The notes under the pieces are model-generated. The model did not search any database, was not told the origin of the DNA, and worked only from the letters and a program-made list of their open reading frames with translations. From Curvularia clavata (lineage: Eukaryota): a DNA stretch of 64,000 bases. A program made the position numbers and the translations under genes. Shown here in pieces: positions 1,812 through 64,000 of this stretch (position 1 is its first letter; every line of letters starts with the position of its first letter). The stretch is taken from positions 2,046,001-2,110,000 of the forward strand of contig CP089280.1 in NCBI GenBank assembly GCA_023920165.1, read 5' to 3'.

Positions 1812-3539
1812 GCTCGGTCGGGGGCTATACTGGTCCAGCAGCAGTGGATAGGGGATGGGAGGGTCCCATGGGTCTTCAGGCGAGCGGCATCTGGGGATGG
1901 GGTTGCGGTGCGGAGAGTCTTCTGGGGGCGAGAGTCGAGAGTCGCGAGTGTGGGTTAAGCGTCGAGGCCAAGTGGGAGTGGGCTGGGCGAAGCTTGAGGG
2001 CAGAGGGCACGCCGGCACCCTTAGTGGCACCTGTTGTTCCAGCCTGTCTCAGCAGCGCCGCCATTGGCCCAAACCCTGCCGGCACCACGCTCGACGGGCC
2101 CCGGTCCCACGTCGCTCCGCATCCAGCCTCATCCCTCCCCAGTGGGCCGCACCTGTGTAGCATGTTGCGCGCTGCGCTGGCCCCTCGCCCGTGCTGCTGC
2201 CAGAGGAGCTGCTCGTCGCACCTCTGCTCTGCTCTGTTCAACATCTTGTGCTGTGCTGCGCTGCGCCTCGGAACGAGCAGCGCGGCCATCGGATCACATC
2301 GGGCGTCGTGTCGGATGCGGCCTAGTCTCACTCTCTGCGCCCCCCAGCTTTTTGCACCCGCACGCCACCCACCCATGCCGGTCCAACAAATTAACACAAC
2401 CGACTCGGAGCCCGGCCGCCCTCGTCCATGCTGCCTCGCCTCGCAGTGTCGACTTTTGATTACACAGCGCAGTGGCCATGCGTGCCATGCCATGCACGAG
2501 CCAGCTGCTTCTGCCCACGCACAAATTGCCTCGAGTGGTTGACAGACGCGCCGTCTCCGCGCGCGCGCTAAAACCCGTGACCGGCCCGCGCACGGACCAA
2601 ATCACGGAACCTCCCAGTCTCCGTCCTGCAACACCAGCACAACAAGACCCAAACAGCAGAGCCAAGCCCACCAAGCCCACGCTTACCTACGCAGCCGGTT
2701 CCTCATCCGCATTGCGCGTCCCACTTGTTCACGCCGGACCCGCGCCCGTCAGTCTGCTCCGCATGCCTTTCCATCGCATTCCATCGACAAATGCCCTTCC
2801 CTGGCCATGTACCTGTTCTAGCGCCATCGACTTCCTAAAAAGCTTGCTTGCCCATGCCGTGCTGCACACTAGGCTACAGAACATTACGACACTCTTGGCC
2901 AATCCAATGCTTTGAATATATACATGCACGTCACATGAGCTTACCGTCAGCCAGCATCATGTCAGCTCTCGGTACTTTTACGACACAGAGTGACTGCAGT
3001 CCAGAACTTTACCAGGCATCCGACAAGGACTGTGCAGTGGCCCCGTTTGACTGCATACATAGTCCAAGAACAAGCACTCGTGCTTCTTGAACAAGGTTTA
3101 CCTAATAGCTCGACTAACCCGCTTCTTCAACTACATTCCAAGAATCTGCATTAGATGTATACAACAAATCAACTTGACAGCAGCTACTCCGTGTTGAATG
3201 CGAGGACATCACTAGTCTAGCCAAGAATGAGAGGATTATATCATCGCCAAACTCTACGTCTAGTACATACAGCCATACAAAACTAAGACGCAGAACATAC
3301 AACCATCTGCCGTGTATCCGTTCTGAGACGTTATTTAACCCACCAAGTACGCCAAGTGATAACTCACAAAAGCTTCTTATCTTAGCGACTGAAACAAAAA
3401 CAAGATACAGTGCATCTACGACATCATTTCACGGCTATATCGGCAAGGTACCCACCCACCTATTCGAGACTATTCTCTCGTTGCTATCACATCTCTCTTC
3501 TTCTGCATGCATTGCATTATTTGTCACCCGTTGTGCACA

Positions 3540-5759: not shown

Positions 5760-7814
5760 ATGGCGCGCAAGAAAGTTCGCGATCGCAAACGGCAGACAAA
5801 GATCAATTTCTCACCAGCGTCCCAATCCACCCAAGCGACTGCATCCTCCAACGCCGCATCTACAGCTGACTTGCCGACGAGACCGCCCCGAAAGCAGCAA
5901 AAGTTGACTGATATTATGTCTGGTACGACAAGGAAGCAAAAACATCAAGAGTCAACAAGCGAAGATGAGCTAGTGGTCGTGAAAAAGAGTGGCATGTTTA
6001 GAGGTCCACGAAATGACGCCAGTGACTCTGAGAGCACGGATGAGGTGGAAGAGCGGGCTCAAATCCGCATTGAGCCTGAGCCTGAACCTGAGTCGCGAAA
6101 GCGGCGGCGCAAGGAACTGTCCAGCGAACCTGAAGACACGAGACCAACTGTAACAGTTTTACCGCGCAAGCGTCAGCGGCGCACTGTCGAGATTGAGATT
6201 GGAAGCTCAGACGAAGGACACAAGAAGAAGGAAAAGAAGAAGGGCAAGAAGGAAAAAAAGCAAAGTAAGAGACGTAAAGAGAAGGAAAGCACACCAGAGC
6301 CTGCGCCGCGTAGCACTCGGCGGGAAGTCACTCCTACACCAGATAACGATGAGGAAGAAGATGAGCTCCCCCGGCCAGCCCAGAGCTCTAAGCGGAAGAC
6401 TATGCAGAGACGCTCTCCATCCGCTGAAGAGCAAGAAGAAGCTCAGAGTCCGCCTCGCAGTGCCAGGCGCAAGCTGAAGAGACGGAGGCTCGCATCTGAA
6501 GATGAGGACGAGGTACAGATAAAACCTGAACCTAGAGAACACGGAGCCGGGGCAATTTCCGCATCAGATGCAGAACCTGATGACGCCGAGAATAATGAAG
6601 AGCAAGAGGAACTCAGAGAAGAGCTCGCATACCTGCGATCGTCCCCAGTCGCAGATCGTGGCCTAGGCAGCACGTATAAAACGAACAAGAACAAGCGACA
6701 AGAGGCTCTCGAAGCCCTGAAAAGACGACGAGCCGGCACAACCGAGCAGCCTTCTTCCTCAGCGACACCTGGACGACGAAGAGCAGTCGTGGTAGACACA
6801 GATTCCGACTCAGAGCTCGAGGTCATCAAGGAGGAACCAAATGATGATCTGGGAGCTTCTGGCCAGGATGACAGCGATGAAGAGCCGGAATCAGATCGTG
6901 AGGCCAATGCACTCGATATGTTCCAAGAAGACCAGGATGACGACCAGTTCATCGACGACGACGAAGAAAATGTCATTGGGGAGCCCTCGGCAAACGCTGA
7001 TTTGGATGAGATGCGTTTGGCGTTCAGCCTTTCGAGGGCGAAGACGAAGGAGCTTTTTAGACACGCTGTCGAGTGGATGGTCATGAAGAAGATCCATCCG
7101 GGCTTCGAATCTACCAAATACATCTACACAGCGACTTTCCGCAAACTCGACGACGAAGTCAAAGCTCTCGCAGGATCAAAATACACATCATCAGCTTGGA
7201 CTGCGGACTTTACACGCGCTATTTGCGCACGCCCAGACATCATGATCAACGACCTCAGCGCGGCCGAAAGAGCAGTAATGTCTCCACATTGCGAAGCCTG
7301 TAATCGCACCAACCACACCGCAAGCTCGGAGATTCTCTTCCAAGGACAACCGTACGATCCCGAAACGCTTGAACCTCTCGCCAGCGATTCAGACTCTGAT
7401 TCTGACAGCGACTCTTCAGGCTTGTCGTCTGACTCAGAGGCCATGCTCAACGGCGAAAAGCCAACCTACAACCGCCGGGGAGAACGCATACCCCCAGAAT
7501 CTCATGCCTTTCCAGTCGGTTCGACCTGCAGGGCTAATGCACAGGTTGCGCATACCTTGTACCATTGGCGTTACCATCTCTACCAATGGGTCAAGGATTA
7601 CCTGAAGGCAGAAGGCCATTTGACGGCAGAAAAGTTGGTCAAGAGGGATGGCTGGAGTGACAGGAAAAGAGACAAGGCAGCGAGGAAGATTGTGAGTGCA
7701 ATGGAAGCCAAAGGACAGATTCGAGAGTTGTACCACTCGTACAAGAATCAAGTCACAGCGGCCGTGGAAGCAGATAATGACTATAGGAATGGATGGGGAC
7801 GGAACCGTGGATAG
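5760..7814 (+). CDS. DUF4211-domain nuclear protein (acidic/basic low-complexity N-terminus)
   Basis: 684-aa intronless ORF; C-terminal conserved region SSAWTADF..CEACNRTNH..CRANAQVAHTLYHWRYHL typical of fungal DUF4211 proteins. Confidence 0.8.
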   Translation: MARKKVRDRKRQTKINFSPASQSTQATASSNAASTADLPTRPPRKQQKLTDIMSGTTRKQKHQESTSEDELVVVKKSGMFRGPRNDASDSESTDEVEERAQIRIEPEPEPESRKRRRKELSSEPEDTRPTVTVLPRKRQRRTVEIEIGSSDEGHKKKEKKKGKKEKKQSKRRKEKESTPEPAPRSTRREVTPTPDNDEEEDELPRPAQSSKRKTMQRRSPSAEEQEEAQSPPRSARRKLKRRRLASEDEDEVQIKPEPREHGAGAISASDAEPDDAENNEEQEELREELAYLRSSPVADRGLGSTYKTNKNKRQEALEALKRRRAGTTEQPSSSATPGRRRAVVVDTDSDSELEVIKEEPNDDLGASGQDDSDEEPESDREANALDMFQEDQDDDQFIDDDEENVIGEPSANADLDEMRLAFSLSRAKTKELFRHAVEWMVMKKIHPGFESTKYIYTATFRKLDDEVKALAGSKYTSSAWTADFTRAICARPDIMINDLSAAERAVMSPHCEACNRTNHTASSEILFQGQPYDPETLEPLASDSDSDSDSDSSGLSSDSEAMLNGEKPTYNRRGERIPPESHAFPVGSTCRANAQVAHTLYHWRYHLYQWVKDYLKAEGHLTAEKLVKRDGWSDRKRDKAARKIVSAMEAKGQIRELYHSYKNQVTAAVEADNDYRNGWGRNRG

Positions 7815-8049
7815 GCGTTTGGCGGAGCCGGTTGGATTTAAGCAAATAATGGCTTTGTGCTTTGTTAAGGGAAAGGTTGAATTTTGATCTGGATACCCTA
7901 TGTCTGCGAGAAGGAAGTGTTTGTTTATCGAGTTGCCAGAGAAATGATGGTCAATGTAAAAAGCAACAGATTGATTCATGAAATCTGGGTATCATGCTTG
8001 TTCATCATGAAGTCAACATCTTCGACGTCGCGCCTCTTCGGCCAGAGCC

Positions 8050-8667
8050 TCACAACATCTCCTCCTCCTCTACCGGTGCCGCCGCACTCTGCGCTATCGC
8101 AACATCGACCTCTTTGCTCTCACCCTTGACCTCGCCATCCCCACCATCATCCATGTCCTCGTCGCTCACCCACTCCCTCTCCGTCTTCTTCTGCTCCGCC
8201 TCGTCCTCCAACGTAGTCCCCTTCTTACCCTTCTTAGCTCCCTCTCCGTTGATATCCTCCCAGCCCTTGGACCTCTCCGTAATCTTCCTCCCTTTACCCA
8301 TACTCTTCAGCCGCTTGTTCGCCAGCTTATCCATATTCTCTTCTGCGCGCTCTAGACCCTTTTGATGGCGCAAGCGCTGCGCCCGAGTCATGTTTGTGCC
8401 TTTTTTCTGTCGCTTCTGGATGCCCGCATCTTTGGCGGCAAGCGCATGTGGGTTGATAGACGAGGGCCGTGAGGGCGAGGCCGAGTCGCGTGTTGTGTGG
8501 GCGGGTTTTTGGGCGGATTTGGGGAGATCAAGAGAGGGAGAGGCGGCGCGGCGGGCGGCGCGAGAGTGTACGGTGACTTCTGTTAGGACTATTAGAGAAA
8601 CTATAGAAGATAGTTAAGCATTGTGAAAAAACTTACGGCGCTTCTTGACTTTTGCTGTTTTCGCCAT
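8050..8667 (-). CDS. ALB1: Ribosome biogenesis protein Alb1 family
   Basis: Exon 1 8667-8637 (MAKTAKVKKR), intron 8636-8580 (GTAAGT..CTAAT..CAG), exon 2 VTVHSRAARRAASPS...RAQRLRHQKGLERAEENMDKL...RSKGWEDIN, the Alb1 signature. Confidence 0.85.
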
Positions 8668-9252
8668 TATGTCTGGATATTTGCGATAATGCGCTGGAGT
8701 AGTGTTGGGTGCGGGTTATTTTCCCGATCGGCTTTCCAAATCCACTATCTGACTAGACCCTATATGTAAAGGGTGTACTTTTCCCAAGCTCTAATAACAG
8801 GCTTGTCAAAAGTATTTGAAATGTCGAGAGTAATCTCACATCCAAAAAGTTCCCCACTAGCTCGTCAAGGGCCAAAATTCCGGATCCACTTCGGACGCTA
8901 ATTGCACGCCCGCACCTTCTCCGATCACCGTTCATAATCATCGGCCCCAAAGCCTTGCCTTTGGATATCCACGCCATCGCTCCGCCACCCACTGTTGCCC
9001 CCCATCGCCCTCGACCGCTGTCGCGTACGTCCGTTCCTCCATGTCGCAGACAAACACACCACCGCGTTTGCTCTGTTCGACACCGTCTATGCGCTGGCCC
9101 GAGGGCTGAAGTACTCGACCGACCGTTTCCCATTTGCGCCATCGCTGCTTTATCATCATTCACGAACCTTCGCTCTGTTCGCCCCGGCGACTGACCACAG
9201 CATCCTGCGGTGACTTGCACGTTTCAGTTTTATTTTTTGCTCCCTCAGAGCT

Positions 9253-11496
9253 ATGAGCTACGGCGAATACCCCGAACTTGACGCCTATCAACAACGCTGG
9301 AACACAACCGACTCGCATTCCTCCACTACTTCTACTCTCCTCGGTGTTATCCTAGGCATATACATCCTCTTCAAGTCCCTCGACTATCTAGGTTTTCCCG
9401 CCGGATTTTACATACGTCAGTTTCTTAGGATGGCGGCGGAAACCTTGCGCTCGCGCGCATCCTCGTTTAGTTCCGTGGCGGGATCAGTATCAAGCGATGG
9501 CTCAGCAGCACAGAACGGAGGCATGTTGGGTAGCCTCTTTGGCATGAGTCCTGGAAGTCTGTTACAGAAAGGCGTCAGAGGCGTGGCGAGCGCTCTCTCC
9601 ATGGGCTCCAGTGACGCCCCGCCTGGCTTGGGCAATATCAGCAATTCTTGCTACCAGAACAGTGTCATTCAGGGCCTTGCCTCCCTCCCTTCTTTACGCG
9701 ACTACCTCGCGAAAACCACGTCCGAACATCCCTCACTCTCCCCTGAAAGCACCAACGGCGCGTTATTCGACATCATTACGCAACTCAACGACCCAGAGAA
9801 TAAGGGGCGGCACTTTTGGATCCGCGGCAAGCTGAAGTCAATGAGTACTTTTGAGCAGCAAGATGCGCAAGAGTACTACAGCAAAATACTAGACGCGCTG
9901 GATGAAGAGGTCAAGAAAACTGCGAGTAGTAAGAGGCGTTCCTCGGTCTCCTGGCTGGAAGTCACAAAGGTTCTCAGTGACTCACCAAACGCAGATGAAA
10001 AGACAGAAGACGGAGGGAAAGACGACAAAGAAAAGACCATACAAGCCCCACCAAACCCTCTCGAGGGCCGTCTTGCGCAGCGCGTTGGCTGCACAGTCTG
10101 TGGATACTCCGAGGGCCTTACACTCATCCCGTTCAACTGCATCACTGTGTCTCTTGGGAAGAATCACGGATACGACATTCGTGAATGTCTTGACGAATAC
10201 ACGACCTTGGAATTCATTGACGGTGTCGAGTGTTCGAAGTGCACCTTGCTCAAGCTGCAGAGAACTCTGAAACCTCTGGTTGATGCTAAACCAGATTCGC
10301 CAATGAAGTCCAGACTCGACGCTGTTCAAGAGGCCTTGGAAAAGGAGGACTTTGAGGACAAGACACTACTGAAGACTCTCAATGTGCCCAAGAAGAATTG
10401 GGTACAGAGCACCAAATCAAAACAGGCAGTTGTCGCTCGCGCACCCCAATCATTGGTGCTTCATGTCAACCGTAGCAGTTTCAATGAGTACACTGGCATG
10501 CCGTTCAAGAATACTGCTGGCGTCTCTTACCCGAGTGTTCTTGATTTAGGCAACTGGTGCCTGGGTGGTGCACTGGCTGGCTCCCAACAGCCTGCCATGT
10601 CTGAAGAAGAATGGCCAAGGGATCCTAGGGAGTCCATGTTACCAAAGAGTCACTCCATGTCGAACTCTCCTTTCCAATATCGGTTGCGCGCTGCTGTCAC
10701 CCACTACGGCTCACACGGTAACGGACATTATGTGTGCTACCGGTCGCACCCAAATACTGTTTCTCACCCAAGCGAGAGTGAGGCAATTGATGTCTCATCA
10801 GCAGATGAGACAGAAAAAGACAATCAAAACAAAGACAGCGAAGATGACCAAGAACAACAAACGCAAGAAGACGCAGCTACTTCTCCATCCGAGCAATGGT
10901 GGCGCTTTAGCGATGATAGTGTTTACCCTGTGTCGGAGCAAGAAGCGCATCAGGGAAATGTGTTCATGCTCTTCTATGAGCGCATCGACGAGTCATCTCC
11001 TGTTTCGTCTCAATCCGCAACAGAGAGCGCCGTAGTAGCCGAGGATGCTCCGTTACCACCAGTGGACACTCACGCATACCCACAAGATCTTGTAGACGAA
11101 GAAGCCATCGCTATTGCTCTACCAGACGAAGACGAAGATCTTCTAGATCCTGTTCCTGCAAAGGCAACCGGCAAGCCGCAGCAGCTTCCACTCGAAATCC
11201 CTCCCATTCAGGAATTGCCAGAACTAATCAATGAAACCTCATCTGATGCCACCACTACGCCAACAGAGCTATCGCCACCACAGTCACAAACCGAGCTTGA
11301 AACAGAAGCCAGCGATGCGGAATCAGAAGACGCACCTTCGACCCAATTAACCTCTGACTCTGAGGCTGATGCGCCCACACCACTAAAGTCGCTACCTGTT
11401 TCTAAAATTTCGCCGAATATGATGCGCACGGCTGGTAATGCGTCGAGCAGAGGGCAGCGCAAGAGACAGAGCCTGCCGCTAGTGTCGGCCACGTAG
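9253..11496 (+). CDS. Ubiquitin-specific protease (peptidase C19) with N-terminal membrane anchor, USP30/Ubp16-like
   Basis: 747 aa; Cys box GLGNISNSCYQNSVIQ, QQDAQE, His box HYGSHGNGHYVCYR and WWRFSDD (Ser at the third catalytic position, as in USP30); hydrophobic LLGVILGIYILF near the N-terminus. Confidence 0.92.
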   Translation: MSYGEYPELDAYQQRWNTTDSHSSTTSTLLGVILGIYILFKSLDYLGFPAGFYIRQFLRMAAETLRSRASSFSSVAGSVSSDGSAAQNGGMLGSLFGMSPGSLLQKGVRGVASALSMGSSDAPPGLGNISNSCYQNSVIQGLASLPSLRDYLAKTTSEHPSLSPESTNGALFDIITQLNDPENKGRHFWIRGKLKSMSTFEQQDAQEYYSKILDALDEEVKKTASSKRRSSVSWLEVTKVLSDSPNADEKTEDGGKDDKEKTIQAPPNPLEGRLAQRVGCTVCGYSEGLTLIPFNCITVSLGKNHGYDIRECLDEYTTLEFIDGVECSKCTLLKLQRTLKPLVDAKPDSPMKSRLDAVQEALEKEDFEDKTLLKTLNVPKKNWVQSTKSKQAVVARAPQSLVLHVNRSSFNEYTGMPFKNTAGVSYPSVLDLGNWCLGGALAGSQQPAMSEEEWPRDPRESMLPKSHSMSNSPFQYRLRAAVTHYGSHGNGHYVCYRSHPNTVSHPSESEAIDVSSADETEKDNQNKDSEDDQEQQTQEDAATSPSEQWWRFSDDSVYPVSEQEAHQGNVFMLFYERIDESSPVSSQSATESAVVAEDAPLPPVDTHAYPQDLVDEEAIAIALPDEDEDLLDPVPAKATGKPQQLPLEIPPIQELPELINETSSDATTTPTELSPPQSQTELETEASDAESEDAPSTQLTSDSEADAPTPLKSLPVSKISPNMMRTAGNASSRGQRKRQSLPLVSAT

Positions 11497-12045
11497 TTTG
11501 TTCGCGACACCAAGCGCACCAAGCTTAGGCATGTGATGACGTGTGGTGAAGAGTACTAGAGGGGATGGAAGGGGTATGATGGAAGGGCCATCTGAATGAA
11601 TAAAACTGCATGTCATGGAAGAGATCCGATGAGACAGGATAAGAATTCGAAATGGGTTAAGGCGTTCAAGTACCTGTTTGCCCGACAGGGTCAGGTCCGG
11701 AGTTATTCTTTCTTTTTTAGGGGTTGGATTATACGCATGTTCTATTGCGTGTTTCAATTCGCATGCACGCGGAGCGGTATTTGCCACAGGATTTTTACGA
11801 TTCCAAAAAAAATCATTTGCCTTGTTATTCGCTGTCTTTGTTGTGTCGTGATGTGTAACGTGTGTGTATTGTCTCTTCGTTAATGATAATTCTATCTACA
11901 CAAATGTATATACGCTGCATGGTCATCCTATGTAAAATGCATATGGCTACAAAGCCCGAATAAGGATGAATGACGCTCCAACCCAATCGTTCAAGCATAT
12001 GGGTACCTATTCATATTTTCCAACAACTACGCCTTCTTCACTGCA

Positions 12046-15000
12046 TCATAACATATCTTCATCATCATACTCGAACTCGCCGTCCCTTTCTGATCCTGCC
12101 ATGCTAGCCACCTCATCGCCCTCTGTGCCTTTCCATCCCAGTCCCGCCCAATCCCTTCCTGCTGTTCTCATGACAGCGTTAAAGTCAACATGAGCATCGA
12201 ACCACCGATCTCTTCTCTTAGACTCTCGGACCCCTCCTTCGAGCGCAACGCGACTCGCCCTCGTCGTGCGTGCTTTCTTTACTCCCAAGACACCGCCATT
12301 CGAGCCCAGCACGTCGGCCATGCGAGTCCGCTGCTGCTCAAGCGTTTGCTCGTGCGCTACGATGCTGCGGACGTAGGGTGCAAGGTCGAGTGTAATGAGA
12401 CTGAATGCGCGATCAAAAGACGAAGGAGTGAGTGTGAATGAGGTGCGTTCTGGAAGGAATTGGTCGGGTGGTGCAGCGAGGCAGTCGAGGGCTATGGCGA
12501 AGTCCTGGCGAGTGAGTCTAGTCTTTTGTTTTTTGTTTCGTTGGCGTTGAAGAATAGTTTGGGCATAGGCGCTCTCCGACATGGCTGCTGAAGGGTTTGG
12601 TGAGGAGAAGCACCGTTCTTGAGCCACTTCGGGATATGCGCGCTGGAGGAGCAGGTGGGTCTGCGTTGCTAGTGCTGTGTCGAAGTTCAGGAAGTCGGCG
12701 TAATGGTCGATTTGAATAAGGGGCGCTGCGAGTGTGTAACTCAGACGAGATTTCTCTGGGACTGGGGGTTGTGAGGCATCGGTGGGTTGGTCGTGATCGC
12801 GGCCATATGTGGGCAGGTCAATGCGGCAGTAGATGTCTGCCGCACTGAGTGACTCGGCATAAGCATCTAAACGGCTAAGTTCTTGGATACGCTGAGGAGG
12901 CTCCGCATTCTGCGTGTTGGGTGTTTGTCGTCTAGTCGTTGTCGAAGCTCCCCAGTCAGAAGGACTAATGCCCCAATCAATCCAAACTTCTTGCAGGAGT
13001 TCTTCTTCTTTGTCAAAAGCGGTATTGTCTGAGACCTCAAAGACGTTGTGCGAGAGCCAGCCCATACCAGACTGATATGTGTCCTTACTGGCAACTCTCA
13101 GAGTCTGACCATGTTCATCAACATCCTTGCCTGGCGGCCAGCGTTGATACATCCACTCCAAACCGCCTTTCCGATCTCCAACAGACATCTGACACCAGAA
13201 GTCAAGCTCCATGATACTAGCTCGGAGATCACAAGCTTTGGACAGATAGAGTTCGTTCACTGCCTGTCGCTCAAGGACATGTCCTTCCTTGCCCGCTACA
13301 ACAAGCAAATAGTCAGTGGCGAGTTCCACAGGAGGAGGCTGGAGGCGAAGAACAGCAGCGAGCGGCAGATCGTGCATTGGCACTTGTCGCTCATCGTTGC
13401 AAGTAATGACTATGGGCCGTTTCGATAGAGACGCAATCTTCGTGATCTGCGTCCAGAACTGTTGGTCCTCTTCGAATAAAATGTCCGCTTCTTCGATAAG
13501 GATTAGAGATTGTTTTTGGGATGCACGTGATGATTGTGTGAGTGGCAGCATTGCTTGAGTCGAGGTTGGTCGTGATTTCTTGACTTCTTGAAGCCGTGCT
13601 TGGGCTTTTGGTTTTGCGGCTGCCGTGCCAGCCTTTGCTTGAAAGAAGGATGTCATGGTGCCTTGCCGCCCACTGCTGATGTCTTTCTCAAGGCCCGCAT
13701 CCATGACACCATCTTCCGTATTGTCTACGGATTGAAGGGGTTCTTGAATTGACGCTGCGTCGCGTTTGTGGTTCACCAGGTGGTTTCCGGTCATATCCCC
13801 TACTTTGTCCTGAATGTCCTTTCCCGAACGACGCATTCCGGCGTGAATCTCGAACACTTCAAATCCCATCTCTTTGGCTACTGCGTGGACGGTTGCGCTT
13901 TTACCACAACCATGAGGCCCACTGATGAGCACCACATTCTTATCACGTGTCCACTGTGGTCGCCGGAATGAGCCTGGTTGCATGTAGCTTCTCCCTTCGA
14001 CGTCTGGAAGGCTCACCATATCTTCCTCTTCTTCTTCATCATCTGGTACAATGAAATTATCAAGGGTCTTCTTGCGTTTCTTGCGAGGTGGCTGTTTTGC
14101 GTCTACTGCAGCAGTGGTTTTTGACGCACCACTTACAGCCATAACGGTTAGACTCTCCAACCAATCTTTCAGTACTACTGCATCCGTGCCAATCTGCAGT
14201 ACATGTGCTGAAGAGCTTGGGGCATATTTTTGGGTCCAAGATCGAGTCTCGCATCTTCCCTCATCGAAGGGCGTGAGGGAGTACTCAATTTCTCCGAGAA
14301 GGCCTTGAATAGCTGCATGTAGCGTTTGTGGTTGTTTGATCAATAGCTGTTCACATACCCGACGCTTTATCTCAGGGCCTGTGGTAAGCAGACGTATTGG
14401 AAGTCGGACATCTTCGGGAGGTGCGAATTCCACTGCATGCTCATGATCCTTCCGGTCCGAAACACTTGAAAGATCTTGCGCAAGTCTTGCGACCATGTCT
14501 TCATGTTCTGGAAGTGTTACAACGGCGCTTTTCATCTTCCGGGGTCTCAACGCTAGCTGTACACGGCTGGGATTATGCAAAAGGGGTGGCCGGATTGTCG
14601 CCTCCAGATTGCGAACATGTACATTTTCGCCAGCCGGCCATGATGGTTCACTGAGACCAGACTGCTTGCCAACTTTGCTCGTCTGCAGTCCCCTGTTGTA
14701 GAACGCGGTAGGCTCTGGTGACTGGTCCCTTCGAGTTTCAGCACGAAGTTTCCCTGGGGTAACGGCACTTTTTCTAGGTGTCGTTGGTGGTAGCTCGTTA
14801 ACGACCTTGACTGAAGGTGTATCCTTTTGGGCCTTTCCAAGAAAGAAAGGATGCGTAACTTTAGGCGGCACAGCTGGCTTCGGCTGCACGCTCTTTTGAG
14901 ACACTTGGGATTTGGTTGACGTTTTCTTTGTGCTCAGAATCTCTTCGATTTTTTGACCGATGATGGATCTGCTTGCTGCGTCTGTACCATACTTGATGAC

Positions 15001-59182: not shown

Positions 59183-59916
59183 GGGCAGAGAGGGAGTCAT
59201 TGAGGGGGTGGAGGGGGTGGAGGGGGACTTGTTGTGAGAGTGGAGACGATGTTATTGAGGGCGAAGTGCAAAGAAGTTATGCAAGTGGAGTAAGGAGAGA
59301 GTTCGGAGATGGAGGGCTTTGACGGGCGTTTTGTTTGGAATTGTTTTTGGGGATAAGATACCTGTCTATTAACTATATACGAAGAGAATATTGAGAAGAG
59401 CTGTTGATTGATTATGAATTTGGGACTTTACATGCACTGGTTCACTTCGCATATGCGATATCATGTATCTAACTCAACAAGTACATCAATCTTTTGGGAT
59501 AATTTCCCCTCCCGTCTCAAAGAATAAGCAACATGGTCATACGCATACAATCATGCCTCATCTCACACCTCTAACTTCCACCCCCGGCCCCCAACACTCA
59601 AGCGCGCCATTATGCAAGCCCAGACTCCTTTTTTCGGCAACCGCACAGCGCGCGCTTACGGCGTTTTCATTTTTGGTACTCGGAGTTGTACCCTTCACCC
59701 ACCACCGACTTGTCCTACTACTTGGCATTTGACTCCTCTTCCCTCCACCCGATCTCAAACCTGCCCACCCACCTCCGCTGCCGCCGCGCGCCGGATTCAT
59801 CACTTCCGTACCTAAGTACAGAAACACGCCAGCCACATTTGCCCTTAGCACCAGGGAGACCCACGATAAATTGCATGTAACTAAACACCAGCTCTGCCCA
59901 CACTTTACTCCTCAGC

Positions 59917-60160
59917 CTGTCCAGCCCATACAGGTTCCGCGGGGCAACAACTTGAACTAAACATTGAAGTATGTTTGTGTAAGTAAACCCGCGGAATTTG
60001 CCGTACGCTGGAAAGAATAGTGGAAGCTTGGCGCGAGCGAAATGGCAGTAGAAAGGGCTTTGTTGGCTGTTATGCTTTTGCAAGTCGGCGAGCTGAGTAC
60101 ACAGCTGAAGAAAAACAAGGCTTTTCTACTATAACAACAGCTCATATATCCATCACATGT
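59917..60160 (+). ncRNA. Candidate box H/ACA snoRNA (snR37-like guide for the LSU rRNA GAGC-psi-GGG site)
   Basis: Hairpin 1 59920-60012, H box AGAATA 60014-60019, hairpin 2 60020-60153 and ACA at 60155-60157. The 3' pocket AAGCT (60024-60028)/GCTCAT (60140-60145) begins 15 nt upstream of the ACA. Confidence 0.7.
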
Positions 60161-60204
60161 TCAGAAAATCTCCTGATCCCGCGGCGCGGAGAAAGCTGCA
60201 ACTT

Positions 60205-60570
60205 GTATATGCCGGAGTCATGTAGGTGTGTGTTGTACATCTGAAAAGCAAACCATGGCGGCTGGATGCGAGTCACGAGGAACCATTATAGTAGAGAGTC
60301 TGTTCCACACCCCACCGAGTCTTTCCCCGGATGATGCCGAAGGTAGAGGGGACTATGAACGCCATCGAGTCATGCAACAAGAATGAATGGCACTATGGAA
60401 TAAGGCGGTAAATGATGGATCGAGCATTTTACTTCTACTATGTACCTACTACAACACACCAATTCCGGATCCCCTTCTTCCGTGTGTAGTCCCAAACATG
60501 GGCAAAAAAAAAAGCGAACATGATGGTTTGCCTGACATTCTCATGACTCTTCCTACATGAACTCCGTTCC
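60205..60570 (+). ncRNA. Putative structured RNA of unknown class directly downstream of the H/ACA candidate
   Basis: Four nested inverted complements: 60213-60226/60552-60566, 60248-60256/60523-60531, 60288-60299/60431-60441, 60301-60307/60396-60402. Confidence 0.4.
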
Positions 60571-61222
60571 TTCAACCCCCTCCACATTACTTTATCCTAC
60601 CCTGCCCTTGCCCTGACCTGTCTAGCTTCCTGCTTCCTGCCTTGCTAGCCCTGGCAACCTTCAGCTACTAAGCGCGCAAGCCACTACCGCCACCAGCACC
60701 ACCATGCAGCACTGCAACTGCGTAAAAAAAAGGACCCTCATACTCGTACGTGCGTGCACATTCGAAACCCTGCCCGCAGAAAGAGAAACAAGAAAGCTTG
60801 CCATACTTGTTTTTCCAACCGCTTTTCGATCTTAGATAAGCACAGCCCACTTTTTTTTTTGCCTTGTTTTTTGGGAGAGGGGCGCTGGAGAACGGAACTA
60901 GGACGGGTGTACACGGGTGTATTTTGTGTATCGTACTAGTTGGACAAGGAAAAACGTGTTGGCGGTGAGTGTATGTGTATGTATGTGTCCGGAACAGGGA
61001 ACATCAAGAAGAAGTGGCGTAGCTGAGGGTTGAGATTGTGAGATACAAGACAAGGAAACCTAATCATGTGCGTATCATGCTTCTAGATTCGAGCAGATTG
61101 AACAAGCCTTTCAGCAACGCCTAGAGGCGAAGGCTTGTTTTTTTCCTTGTTCTTGAGATTCATTTCTTTTCCCTTGCGCGGCAGCCGTGCAGATGGGAAT
61201 GTAATGAATGGTGTGAGGATGG

Positions 61223-61933
61223 TCAACCGGCATTGACCGTCCACAATGTGCGCCGCCAGCCTCTTGTGGAAACTGTGACGACGCCTTCCCGAACGGATTC
61301 GGTTTCTGAAGCGTTTGGAGTAGGAAGTCGGCGCGAATAAACAATGGTTTCCAGCTCCTCGGGTCGGTCATCTGACGTAGTTGCGTGCTCGCTGGTTTGA
61401 GAACTGGTGTCGTCTTCGGCAGTCTCTTGGATTGCGATTGTCGGTAAAGGAAGTGGATAGTAAGGTGCGTCGTACGGCCCTGGAAGTCTTTGCGGCGGTG
61501 CTATCCATGGATGTATGGGTAGAAGAGATGGCTCCAGAGTTTCCTGCTTCAGTGACTCCAGGTGATCGTTCTGGTTCTGTTCCGGCGACACCCGTCGATT
61601 TCTGTCACGATTTCGTTCTTCCGAGTGATCCTTTCCTTCCAACTCTGCAACTTCAACTTTTTCTTTGCTCTTAGAGACGTCGAACTCGACATTCTGGGAA
61701 GAGTCTTTCCGTCGCTTGATAGGTAACCCCTCGTGATCCATGCCTGACCCCTCCAGATTCCGGTCAGAACTTGATGCTCTACTCTTTCTTCTTCCCAAGA
61801 CAACAATGATAGATTGCAGGGCTGCTGCGAGTAAGGATACTAGCAGGACGGTGCTCCAGTGACTGTGCGATTCAAGTATTGTGCTCCAGCGGTCCAGGCT
61901 GGCAACACCGGGAGATATAGGAAGTGGAGACAT
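61223..61933 (-). CDS. Hypothetical single-pass membrane protein
   Basis: Open frame with hydrophobic VLLVSLLAAALQSIIVVL, a proline motif PWIAPPQRLPGPYDAPYYPLP and C-terminal GWRRTLWTV. Start uncertain (first in-frame ATG at 61933; the frame is open to 61984). Confidence 0.72.
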   Translation of the reverse strand: MSPLPISPGVASLDRWSTILESHSHWSTVLLVSLLAAALQSIIVVLGRRKSRASSSDRNLEGSGMDHEGLPIKRRKDSSQNVEFDVSKSKEKVEVAELEGKDHSEERNRDRNRRVSPEQNQNDHLESLKQETLEPSLLPIHPWIAPPQRLPGPYDAPYYPLPLPTIAIQETAEDDTSSQTSEHATTSDDRPEELETIVYSRRLPTPNASETESVREGVVTVSTRGWRRTLWTVNAG

Positions 61934-64000
61934 CAGAACAGTGATGACGATGATGAGAGAAATATAGGCCTTGGCACTGTGCACTCACGCGACTGGCGAA
62001 TCGAGAGTTGCTGCAGGTCCGGATAACACTAATCACTTGCGTCAGTACAGTCAATGGTAACACGGCAGCCTTTTCATATTACATGCCTCAGAAAAGGGAT
62101 GGGGGAAAGCCGTTAGCATAAGCACTAGGATACGAGGCTTTCGGTCGATAGTATCGATATCAAGTACTTAATAAGACTCGCGGACAAGCCTCCCTGTTGT
62201 TTCTTGTATGATTTGCACCGGGGTCCTGGAAGTTATGAATGGAGGAAGTTCGCATACAAGCCTGGGCTTATGTTCCTGCATATGGCTCTCCTTCCAGCTC
62301 TCCATTGTGAATTACTTATTTACCTTGATGGCAACATTCAGCACGCCCAGGTGGCACTGAAACATCACGATTTCAAGATGCTAGCTCGCCGCGATCTGGT
62401 GGCACAGGCAAAAATGCCACGCGCTAGACGCAGCGTAAGCCCATGTAGTCGGCGAATCGAGTAAAAGGCACCAAACATGGCCCATTTCAGCTCTATCTTG
62501 CCAGCGGCAGGCGTAACATGACAGATGCTACTAGGAAATCGGCTTAGTGTAGTGCGCGGTCTCAGCACGTCAACCAAAGTACTGGCATCTTGGCGGGTGG
62601 ATGCTCAGCTGAAGATGCGCAATGGTGGCGTTCGTTGTGGCGTCCGGCGCTCCCCATCTTACCGGATTGGCAGGGGTAACCCGAGAGAAAACCCTGCTTC
62701 GAGAAATAACGGCGAGCTGGGCTGTGGATGAATTGGATCAAACGATTCGGGCGGCTATTGACGCCGCTGCTACTCGTACACTGTGGCGCAATCGCAGAGA
62801 GACAAGGGGGTGTGGTGTGCCAAGACAAGACATCCCGTGATGGGCGGGTTTCAGCTCCTCTCCGGACGCCAACTGAAGAGCAAGCAGGCATCCATTGCGA
62901 CATGTTGATGAACACGTGAGAAGAGTATCATTAATCGACATTAAAGCTTATAGTAGCCAATCGCTTGACCAAAACAGCCGCCGTTTCTGCTATTTGTGGG
63001 TTTGTTTATCGCGATTTTGTACAGCGACTGGTTTGGTGTGCCTACGATGTGAATGGCGGGTATTAGCGCTGGTGAGGCTTTGATGGCTTTGTCCACGATT
63101 TCGACATTGCCAATATCAGGTCCATGCACGGCCATGTGTATCTAGACGCGGCTCTCGATCTCTATGCTTTCTCTCCACGTTTCTCTCCACGATTCGTCGA
63201 CTCACTCGCGATCTCGAGACACTCTGCCTGACCGCATCTATCCTCGTCTTGACCGGATACAGATTGTGGATAGCTAGCTGCCATTGACTCTGAGAATGTT
63301 GGTCAAAGGCTAGCTGGAACCTGGACTCTAGACTGTTCGATACATAGTCTGTGACCAGCTGTTCTGCAAGCTGTCAATTCTCATTTGCTCACACATCCTG
63401 GAAGTACATATATATAGTCGGTATCATGCGCTTGTTGCTTGCTTTTCGAAGCCACCAACCGGATTGCTCTGGCGTTTGACTAGGAAGTTTGAACTTTCGT
63501 AGGCATATTCCAATCTGAGAAGAGCAGCGACTCACAATGCCGACATGGTATGCATACTCTTACACCGTACTAGAGTGTGCATGGACCTAAAACTCGACTG
63601 TCAAAGACATGCCGCTTGTACCGATGATGCCGTCATCAGGCGGAAGATCTGCTTTTAGTGAGCTGGCTGTCAAGTCCTAAGAGAGATGTGATTAGCTAGT
63701 ACGCAGAGTATACGGGTACGGCATCCGCAGAAGTCTGTCGTTGATATTAATTAGTGCGCCTGAAACTTAAGTGTGGCGGGCTCCATACCACGGCGATCCC
63801 GGCGCCACATCAACACGTGACCCGCCCCTGATACTAATGTCTTGACACTCACGCACTAAGTCAATCGCGCTCGGACTTGGACGACAGGAATGACAGCAAT
63901 GCTTTCGGGTGGAAATTACAGCTGCGGTTGTCAATGACACAGGACGACGGACATGACTATTGGACCGGAGCTGCTATTTTCGAACATCGAAATTGGAATG

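Follow-up and report, generated by a model that had tools for sequence, protein, structure and literature searches.

The stretch of DNA analysed here, referred to as the window, comprises 64,000 nt of Curvularia clavata (GCA_023920165.1, contig CP089280.1, positions 2,046,001-2,110,000 of the forward strand). A UBC-type E2 gene ends at ~59182 on the plus strand; its two exon pieces match Pfam UQ_con, with E values of 3e-4 and 1.5e-4, scores that fall below the curated cut-off because the exon pieces are fragments. The next ORF downstream of the candidate element, 61223-61984, lies on the minus strand. The ~2 kb between the two contain ORFs of at most 121 aa, none of which has a Pfam match, so that the ORF-poor stretch between convergent genes described in the initial annotation is indeed there. 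Within it lies an H/ACA-like element of ~240 nt on the plus strand (59920-60160, with the listed stems and boxes at 59920-60157). A TATA-like ATAAAT was read from the sequence at 59866-59871 (+), ~50 nt 5′ of the first hairpin, and might act as a promoter element of the candidate; PMC4138321 offered no promoter motif applicable to the locus. The same intergenic region also carries a perfect 14-nt inverted repeat, GGCAAAAAAAAAAG at 60501-60514 and CTTTTTTTTTTGCC at 60850-60863, with 335 nt between the copies.

Layout and fold stability of the candidate

The hairpin-H-hairpin-ACA layout proposed for this element was recovered with all of its stems and boxes, each being present in the sequence or in the predicted fold, and two closed hairpins were found in both the MFE and the centroid structures. 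All features that follow are on the plus strand. Hairpin 1 (59920-60012, 93 nt) has 32 pairs, 3 of them G-U, in the predicted fold. Its 6-bp lower stem, UCCAGC/GCUGGA (59920-25/60007-12), opens into an internal loop of 5/6 nt made up of CCAUA (59926-59930; unpaired in the MFE and centroid structures) on the 5′ strand and CCGUAC (60001-60006) on the 3′ strand. Above this pocket the fold predicts a 13-bp upper stem (59931-43/59988-60000), followed by the short stems ACUUG/UAAGU and AAACAU/AUGUUU. The base of the upper stem, G60000, is 14 nt before the H box, and hence the hairpin 1 pocket is canonical. The H-box-like hexamer AGAAUA (60014-60019), which fits ANANNA, begins 1 nt after hairpin 1 and directly abuts hairpin 2 (0 nt).

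Hairpin 2 (60020-60153, 134 nt) consists of a 5-bp lower stem, GUGGA/UCCAU (60020-24/60149-53), a large irregular loop, a long stem of 17 bp with one bulged G (60047-64/60114-30) and a branched top with two small apical hairpins. The ACA triplet (60155-60157) follows after 1 nt; in box H/ACA snoRNAs this triplet is 3 nt from the 3′ end. No upper-stem closure of more than 3 pairs was found in hairpin 2 at 14-16 nt from the ACA, and when the proposed guide bases were held free the first stable stem began 25 nt from it, so that this pocket is non-canonical. The distance of 14-16 nt from the box that the initial annotation gives for H/ACA pockets is thus seen in hairpin 1, at 14 nt with its 5/6-nt loop, and not in hairpin 2, where at most 3 closing pairs are available at that distance. 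In the MFE structure GCUC (60140-43) pairs internally with GAGC (60035-38). An alternative hairpin 2 pocket below this GAGC/GCUC stem was rejected: its distance to the ACA is 12 nt, and in the relative described below the AUAUA arm is altered at 3 of 5 positions and has an insertion in addition.

The two hairpins differ in how they compare with shuffled sequences. Hairpin 1 has an MFE of -39.2 kcal/mol (z -5.08 on the plus strand), and an equally stable fold was obtained from none of 200 shuffles. Its minus strand folds equally well (z -5.34), and a hairpin without strand preference fits a DNA palindrome better than selection at the RNA level. Elsewhere in the window the hairpin 1 arm has no copy: at ≤3 mismatches 5 matches were counted, where 4.9 are expected. 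Hairpin 2 has an MFE of -40.6 kcal/mol (z -1.78), which 12 of 200 shuffles matched; its stability is thus only marginally above that of shuffles of the same composition. For the whole element the values were z -2.82 (+) and z -1.24 (-), and the strength of the candidate resides almost entirely in hairpin 1. Stable local folds are common in this DNA, with at least 12 distinct 100-nt stretches of the window at -43 kcal/mol or below.

Both strands of the window were scanned for an ANANNA and an ACA 45-150 nt apart with a closed hairpin between them, a second hairpin ending at most 2 nt before the H box, and spacers of 0-2 nt. This returned 34 candidates, among which 59920-60157 came first (-79.8 kcal/mol) and was the only one below -65 kcal/mol with a pocket at 14-16 nt. 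After dinucleotide shuffling of the whole window, the energy of the candidate was reached in 17 of 62 cases, in one of the 62 together with a pocket at 14-16 nt, and in none was an equally stable hairpin 1 combined with a canonical pocket. Such a layout, the canonical pocket included, is rarer than chance would have it, at roughly 1-2% per 64-kb window. The minus strand showed no comparable H/ACA layout, the best overlapping candidate there having -44.2 kcal/mol and lacking a pocket. The next-best layouts elsewhere in the window were 12928-13195 (-), at -71.0 kcal/mol, and 2816-3071 (-), at -70.0 kcal/mol, both of them without a pocket at 14-16 nt.

Such a complete geometry, with the hairpin 1 pocket at 14 nt and only one shuffle in 62 as good, in an intergenic and ORF-free position, is what argues for a genuine H/ACA snoRNA, a reading that taken as a whole we consider rather unlikely. 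In its more plausible form, itself an unlikely one, 59920-60160 (+) would be an independently transcribed snoRNA of ~240 nt confined to a narrow lineage. Hairpin 1 would then hold the sole canonical pocket, which would either guide a uridine in a species-specific part of the rRNA, in an snRNA or in a pre-rRNA spacer or have no target, as in orphans; the 3′ hairpin, lacking a pocket, would have a structural role and bind the second Cbf5 module. As in the class at large, the RNA would be small, stable and bound by Cbf5, Nop10, Nhp2 and Gar1. The absence of a strand preference in hairpin 1 speaks against it, as do the comparisons that follow.

Family searches and conservation in one relative

The whole window gave no Rfam match at the gathering score, and when 59700-60400 was searched at E values up to 10 no family appeared, just two weak and irrelevant matches. 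The comparison with Rfam H/ACA models that had been suggested at the outset thus matched no family, a result that weighs against a snoRNA. A pattern search of metagenomes over the 3′ arm, lower stem and ACA led to one locus (L043), which was rejected as a GC-rich bacterial coding region and no homologue.

Among public sequencing runs, eight of one organism contain nearly all of the sampled words, and several others contain identical fragments. The contigs from runs X10, X12 and X18 (186, 201 and 243 nt) are identical or near-identical to the window and are uninformative. Conservation was accordingly judged from one true relative (organism 'E'), represented by one 2536-nt contig of run X13. This contig aligns with 59776-59866 (8 other letters, 3 gaps) and with 60061-60398 (32 other letters, 17 gaps), with a likeness of roughly 86-88% in these parts. 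Between them the contig has 192 letters where the window has 194 (59867-60060), and the two are not alignable at 80%. The TATA-like site, the whole of hairpin 1, the H box and the 5′ half of hairpin 2, with the AAGCU arm considered below, all fall within this block. The initial annotation had named a lack of conservation of the boxes and pocket among the findings that would refute its proposal; in this one relative the block that holds the H box and hairpin 1 could not be aligned at 80%, and the ACA and the 3′ strand of the lower stem were kept.

The 3′ part of the candidate (60061-60160) carries 6 substitutions and 3 insertions in the relative, i.e., 9 differences per 100 nt, and the following 238 nt carry ~19 substitutions and 5 insertions, ~24 differences. 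Counted in this way, the 3′ part is kept no better than its flank in the one relative available. Over its full length a functional snoRNA should be kept better than its surroundings; the candidate is not, and this counts against a snoRNA. Six of the eight changes in 60061-60160 are at unpaired positions of the model. The relative has an extra U after 60121, which could pair with the bulged G60057, and a U>G change at 60125, the pairing partner of which is inside the non-alignable block. GCUCA, the 3′ strand of the lower stem and the ACA are unchanged, and the 3 nt between the GCUCAU arm and the lower stem vary freely.

The longest identity begins in the candidate and continues beyond it. The 50 nt at 60149-60198, from the 3′ strand of the lower stem to 41 nt past the ACA, are identical in the relative, and they stand out from surroundings that differ at about 1 position in 10. 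CCCGCGG in this stretch is the same heptamer as the core of the hairpin 1 stem (59988-94). The kept block 60061-60398 as a whole runs across the presumed 3′ end of the candidate, and it is noncoding, its indels in the relative having lengths not divisible by three. Precisely at 59776, ~144 nt before hairpin 1, the X13 contig stops in Illumina adapter sequence, with no run of A or T; this hints at the discrete end of a molecule, with the kind of run (RNA or DNA) being a guess.

A conserved block that ignores the 3′ border of the candidate suggests that the locus may belong to a longer noncoding transcript, or to a long 3′ UTR of either convergent gene, an alternative that we regard as distinctly unlikely. 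In that case 60061-60398, with its 50 identical bases, would serve the longer transcript and not a snoRNA, and hairpin 1 would be some other element, for instance a Dicer-type hairpin (a milRNA precursor) or a protein-binding palindrome. The 2536-nt contig, which bridges the region, and its adapter end at 59776 point the same way, to the extent that the guess on the kind of run is right, and the 32-pair hairpin that forms on either strand would suit such an element. However, hairpin 1 itself is within the block that could not be aligned with the relative at 80%, and the Rfam searches yielded no family of any kind.

Proposed pairing with the large-subunit rRNA

The initial annotation proposed that hairpin 2 pairs with the LSU rRNA at the peptidyl-transferase centre (PTC). 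The LSU segment concerned, GGGAACGUGAGCUGGGUUUAGACC, was read from a eukaryotic fragment (L001) and is identical in three complete eukaryotic rDNA units (L017, L021 and L035), which were used for the target search and which are divergent and, by their primer sites, not fungal-looking. A search for the LSU motif gave two fragments in viral contigs and 40 loci in genome contigs, and no fungal rDNA was found in the viral contigs via the ITS1F primer. The three units (L017 at 7712-13462 of its contig) lie in contigs filed under bacterial MAGs, one of them in a 532-kb contig labelled Actinomycetota, and are likely to be eukaryotic contamination of the bins. A group I intron (Rfam RF00028, 97.5 bits) is present in the SSU of L035.

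The proposed 3′ guide arm, GCUCAU (60140-60145, +), pairs with GUGAGC of the LSU at -6.8 kcal/mol, with G60140 at 15 nt before the ACA. The proposed 5′ arm, AAGCU (60024-60028, +), pairs with GGUUU through a duplex that includes 2 G-U pairs and contributes -1.0 kcal/mol, and it overlaps the top pair of the hairpin 2 lower stem. In total the pairing comprises 11 bp, 3 of them G-U, at 15 nt to the ACA; the bipartite duplexes of H/ACA pockets with their rRNA or snRNA targets have 9-13 bp. By comparison, the 7-bp arm of the Neurospora type discussed below reaches -10.4 kcal/mol. The pairing to the PTC segment is weak.

Published yeast residues were then mapped onto the segment. According to the portion of the preprint 10.64898/2026.03.20.713187 drawn on here, snR37 guides U2944 via its 5′ hairpin, A2946, C2948 and C2959 are methylated, and yeast U2953 corresponds to human U4530; the positions of ψ2944, Am2946, Cm2948 and Cm2959 are also given in a table of PMC8307265. 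With U2953 as the first U of UUU in GGGAACGUGAGCUGGGUUUAGACC, ψ2944 is the U of ACG-U-GAG, and it follows that the uridine left unpaired by the proposed duplex (GAGC-U-GGG) is yeast U2949, 5 nt downstream of the site of snR37. The context (A/G)UGAGC-ψ-GGGUUU, which the initial annotation gives for yeast ψ2944, is thus wrong, since its uridine is U2949. What survives of the pairing claim is that GCUCAU and AAGCU do pair with the LSU at 15 nt to the ACA; the site that they would present is U2949 and not ψ2944. Located by this motif in rrlH of E. coli K-12, the uridine is at 23S position 2580 (U2580). The yeast table of PMC8307265 gives no modification for 25S-2949. In the part of PMC7600485 cited here, ψ2580, made by RluC, corresponds to the single pseudouridine of the mitochondrial LSU, and the table of that paper has 'no' for the cytosolic equivalent.

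The specificity of the match was evaluated with the three rDNA sets. At canonical spacing, hairpin 2 had 49 distinct matches in the three LSUs, 22 in the SSUs and 1 in 5.8S, and the PTC match was the sole one with a target identical in all three LSUs. When the pocket strands were shuffled, a conserved match at least as good was obtained in 55 of 400 trials. Target matches of hairpin 2 at 18-24 nt from the ACA were set aside. The hairpin 1 pocket, for which no target had been recognised earlier, had no conserved target in the LSU, SSU or 5.8S of the three non-fungal rDNA sets, in agreement with that remark; species-specific matches alone were found there (2 in the LSU and 2 in 5.8S).

A lineage-restricted H/ACA snoRNA with an open pocket in the 3′ hairpin could place the universally conserved GAGC-U-GGGUUU uridine of the PTC (U2949, or E. 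coli U2580) in the active site of Cbf5, and the result would be a cytosolic pseudouridine beside Cm2948 that is absent from yeast and human. We judge this second form of the snoRNA reading to be very improbable. It is consistent with the 11-bp pairing at 15 nt to the ACA and with a target segment shared by L001 and three divergent eukaryotic LSUs, and the same uridine is a pseudouridine in E. coli and in the mitochondrial LSU rRNA. Furthermore, GCUCA is kept in the relative next to 3 nt that vary freely, and the relative has C at 60145, a U>C change that would turn a G-U pair of the rRNA duplex into G-C. Set against this, equally good conserved matches arise from shuffled pockets at the frequency given above, and the 5′ arm adds just -1.0 kcal/mol, overlaps the lower stem and lies inside 59867-60060, which the relative does not retain. 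The pocket has no upper stem of more than 3 pairs above it, and GCUC is engaged with GAGC (60035-38) in the MFE structure. The yeast and cytosolic entries of the two published tables also speak against a modification at this residue.

Interpretation and comparison with known systems

The reading that we prefer, with confidence evenly balanced, is that the candidate resembles an H/ACA snoRNA gene by chance and does not function as one. Hairpin 1 would be an imperfect local palindrome that probably arose at the DNA level and happens to precede an ANANNA hexamer; next would come 134 nt with a fold about as stable as their composition alone would give, and then an ACA. The PTC complementarity would be a chance match to a site that is unmodified in yeast and human cytosolic ribosomes, and no stable RNA of ~240 nt would be made from the locus. 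Four observations make us favour a look-alike: hairpin 1 is symmetrical in the manner of a palindrome, hairpin 2 is of ordinary stability and has an irregular pocket, the target match is at chance level, and conservation in the one relative is poor and out of register with the element. The lack of an Rfam match, the lack of a conserved target for the hairpin 1 pocket in the three rDNA sets and the abundance of stable 100-nt folds in the window lead in the same direction. Against it stand the rarity of the layout (1 of 62 shuffles; best of 34), the spacers of 1, 0 and 1 nt and the pocket at exactly 14 nt, the ORF-free intergenic position with ATAAAT ~50 nt upstream, and the PTC site as the only hairpin 2 match identical in three LSUs. 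The retention of the ACA, of the 3′ strand of the lower stem and of GCUCA, with 6 of 8 changes at unpaired positions, is also against it, within the limit that the conservation comes from a single relative with a non-alignable middle block.

If the candidate is a look-alike, the case calls for caution: a palindrome followed by ANANNA and ACA, motifs that are low in information, can mimic the H/ACA layout, and about 1 of 7 random pockets matches a famous rRNA site over 11 bp in two parts. A real snoRNA at this locus would be an ordinary addition to the H/ACA repertoire of filamentous fungi, which is poorly catalogued. The sole notable outcome would be a true guide for U2949, i.e., RNA-guided pseudouridylation of the U2580 equivalent in a cytosolic ribosome, which would have converged on a modification made by protein-only enzymes in bacteria and mitochondria.

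The stand-alone synthases for this uridine are RluC in E. coli, and human RPUSD4 and a yeast mitochondrial enzyme, which act on the mitochondrial LSU. They are protein-only and serve bacterial or organellar ribosomes, whereas the guide proposed here would be a snoRNA acting on the cytosolic one, and the tables of PMC8307265 and PMC7600485 contain no snoRNA-guided cytosolic counterpart for the U2580 equivalent.

The label 'snR37-like' was not upheld in target, guiding hairpin or sequence. In yeast snR37, Neurospora crassa Nc ACA15 and human SNORA10, LSU ψ2944 (helix H90) is guided by the 5′ hairpin through a GCU/CGUUCCC pocket, complementary to GGGAACG-U-G-AGC. Nc ACA15 (233 nt) guides 26S-ψ2902 from the H-box hairpin, with the arms GCU and CGUUCCC(N8)AAAGUA (entry in PMC2780460). 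An arm of the CGUUCCC type is absent from the candidate, the hairpin 1 pocket of which is CCAUA/CCGUAC and has no match at the PTC in the three LSUs; by eye, the printed sequence of Nc ACA15 does not resemble it either. Unlike in snR37, the arm (GCUCAU) belongs to the 3′ hairpin, and it is U2949 that stays unpaired. snR37 also has 386 nt, with extra helices for Upa1-Upa2 and Rbp95. The likeness to snR37 consists in a proposed pairing that involves the same helix of the rRNA and overlaps the region bound by snR37, and in the 3′ hairpin, since that of snR37, as described in the cited portion of the preprint 10.64898/2026.03.20.713187, is branched with a pocket-less middle, as is that of the candidate. 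A precedent thus exists for the pocket-less 3′ hairpin that a narrow-lineage snoRNA would have.

The closest frame of reference is the set of Neurospora crassa H/ACA snoRNAs, Nc ACA1-20, which measure 136-309 nt and are mostly intergenic, and 6 of which were published as orphans (Liu et al. 2009, PMC2780460, in the portion used here). The candidate differs from them in having no predicted target, in a 3′ hairpin without a canonical pocket and in being poorly kept in one relative. When it was compared by eye with the 20 Neurospora sequences, no convincing likeness was seen, a short resemblance to Nc ACA7 aside. There, the base of hairpin 1 (59920-59930 and 60005-60019) resembles by eye the base of the Nc ACA7 5′ hairpin as printed in PMC2780460, with UCCAGCC-AUA on the 5′ side and ACGCU-GAA followed by AGAA on the 3′ side; a likeness of such length is expected about once by chance, and the 3′ hairpins are unlike each other by eye. 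The sequence comparison, together with hairpin 1, H box and the 5′ half of hairpin 2 not being kept at 80% in the relative and with the empty target search in three non-fungal rDNA sets, weakens the case for a narrow-lineage snoRNA. In its favour, size and location resemble those of Neurospora H/ACA genes, 6 of the 20 having been published as orphans, and lineage-specific gains and losses are many in H/ACA families (PMC5824354, in the part cited). The candidate is like Nc ACA1-20, as far as the cited part of PMC2780460 describes them, in the order hairpin-H-hairpin-ACA, in a length within 136-309 nt, in its intergenic position and in a pocket 14 nt from the H box, and its H box, AGAAUA, is that of Nc ACA18.
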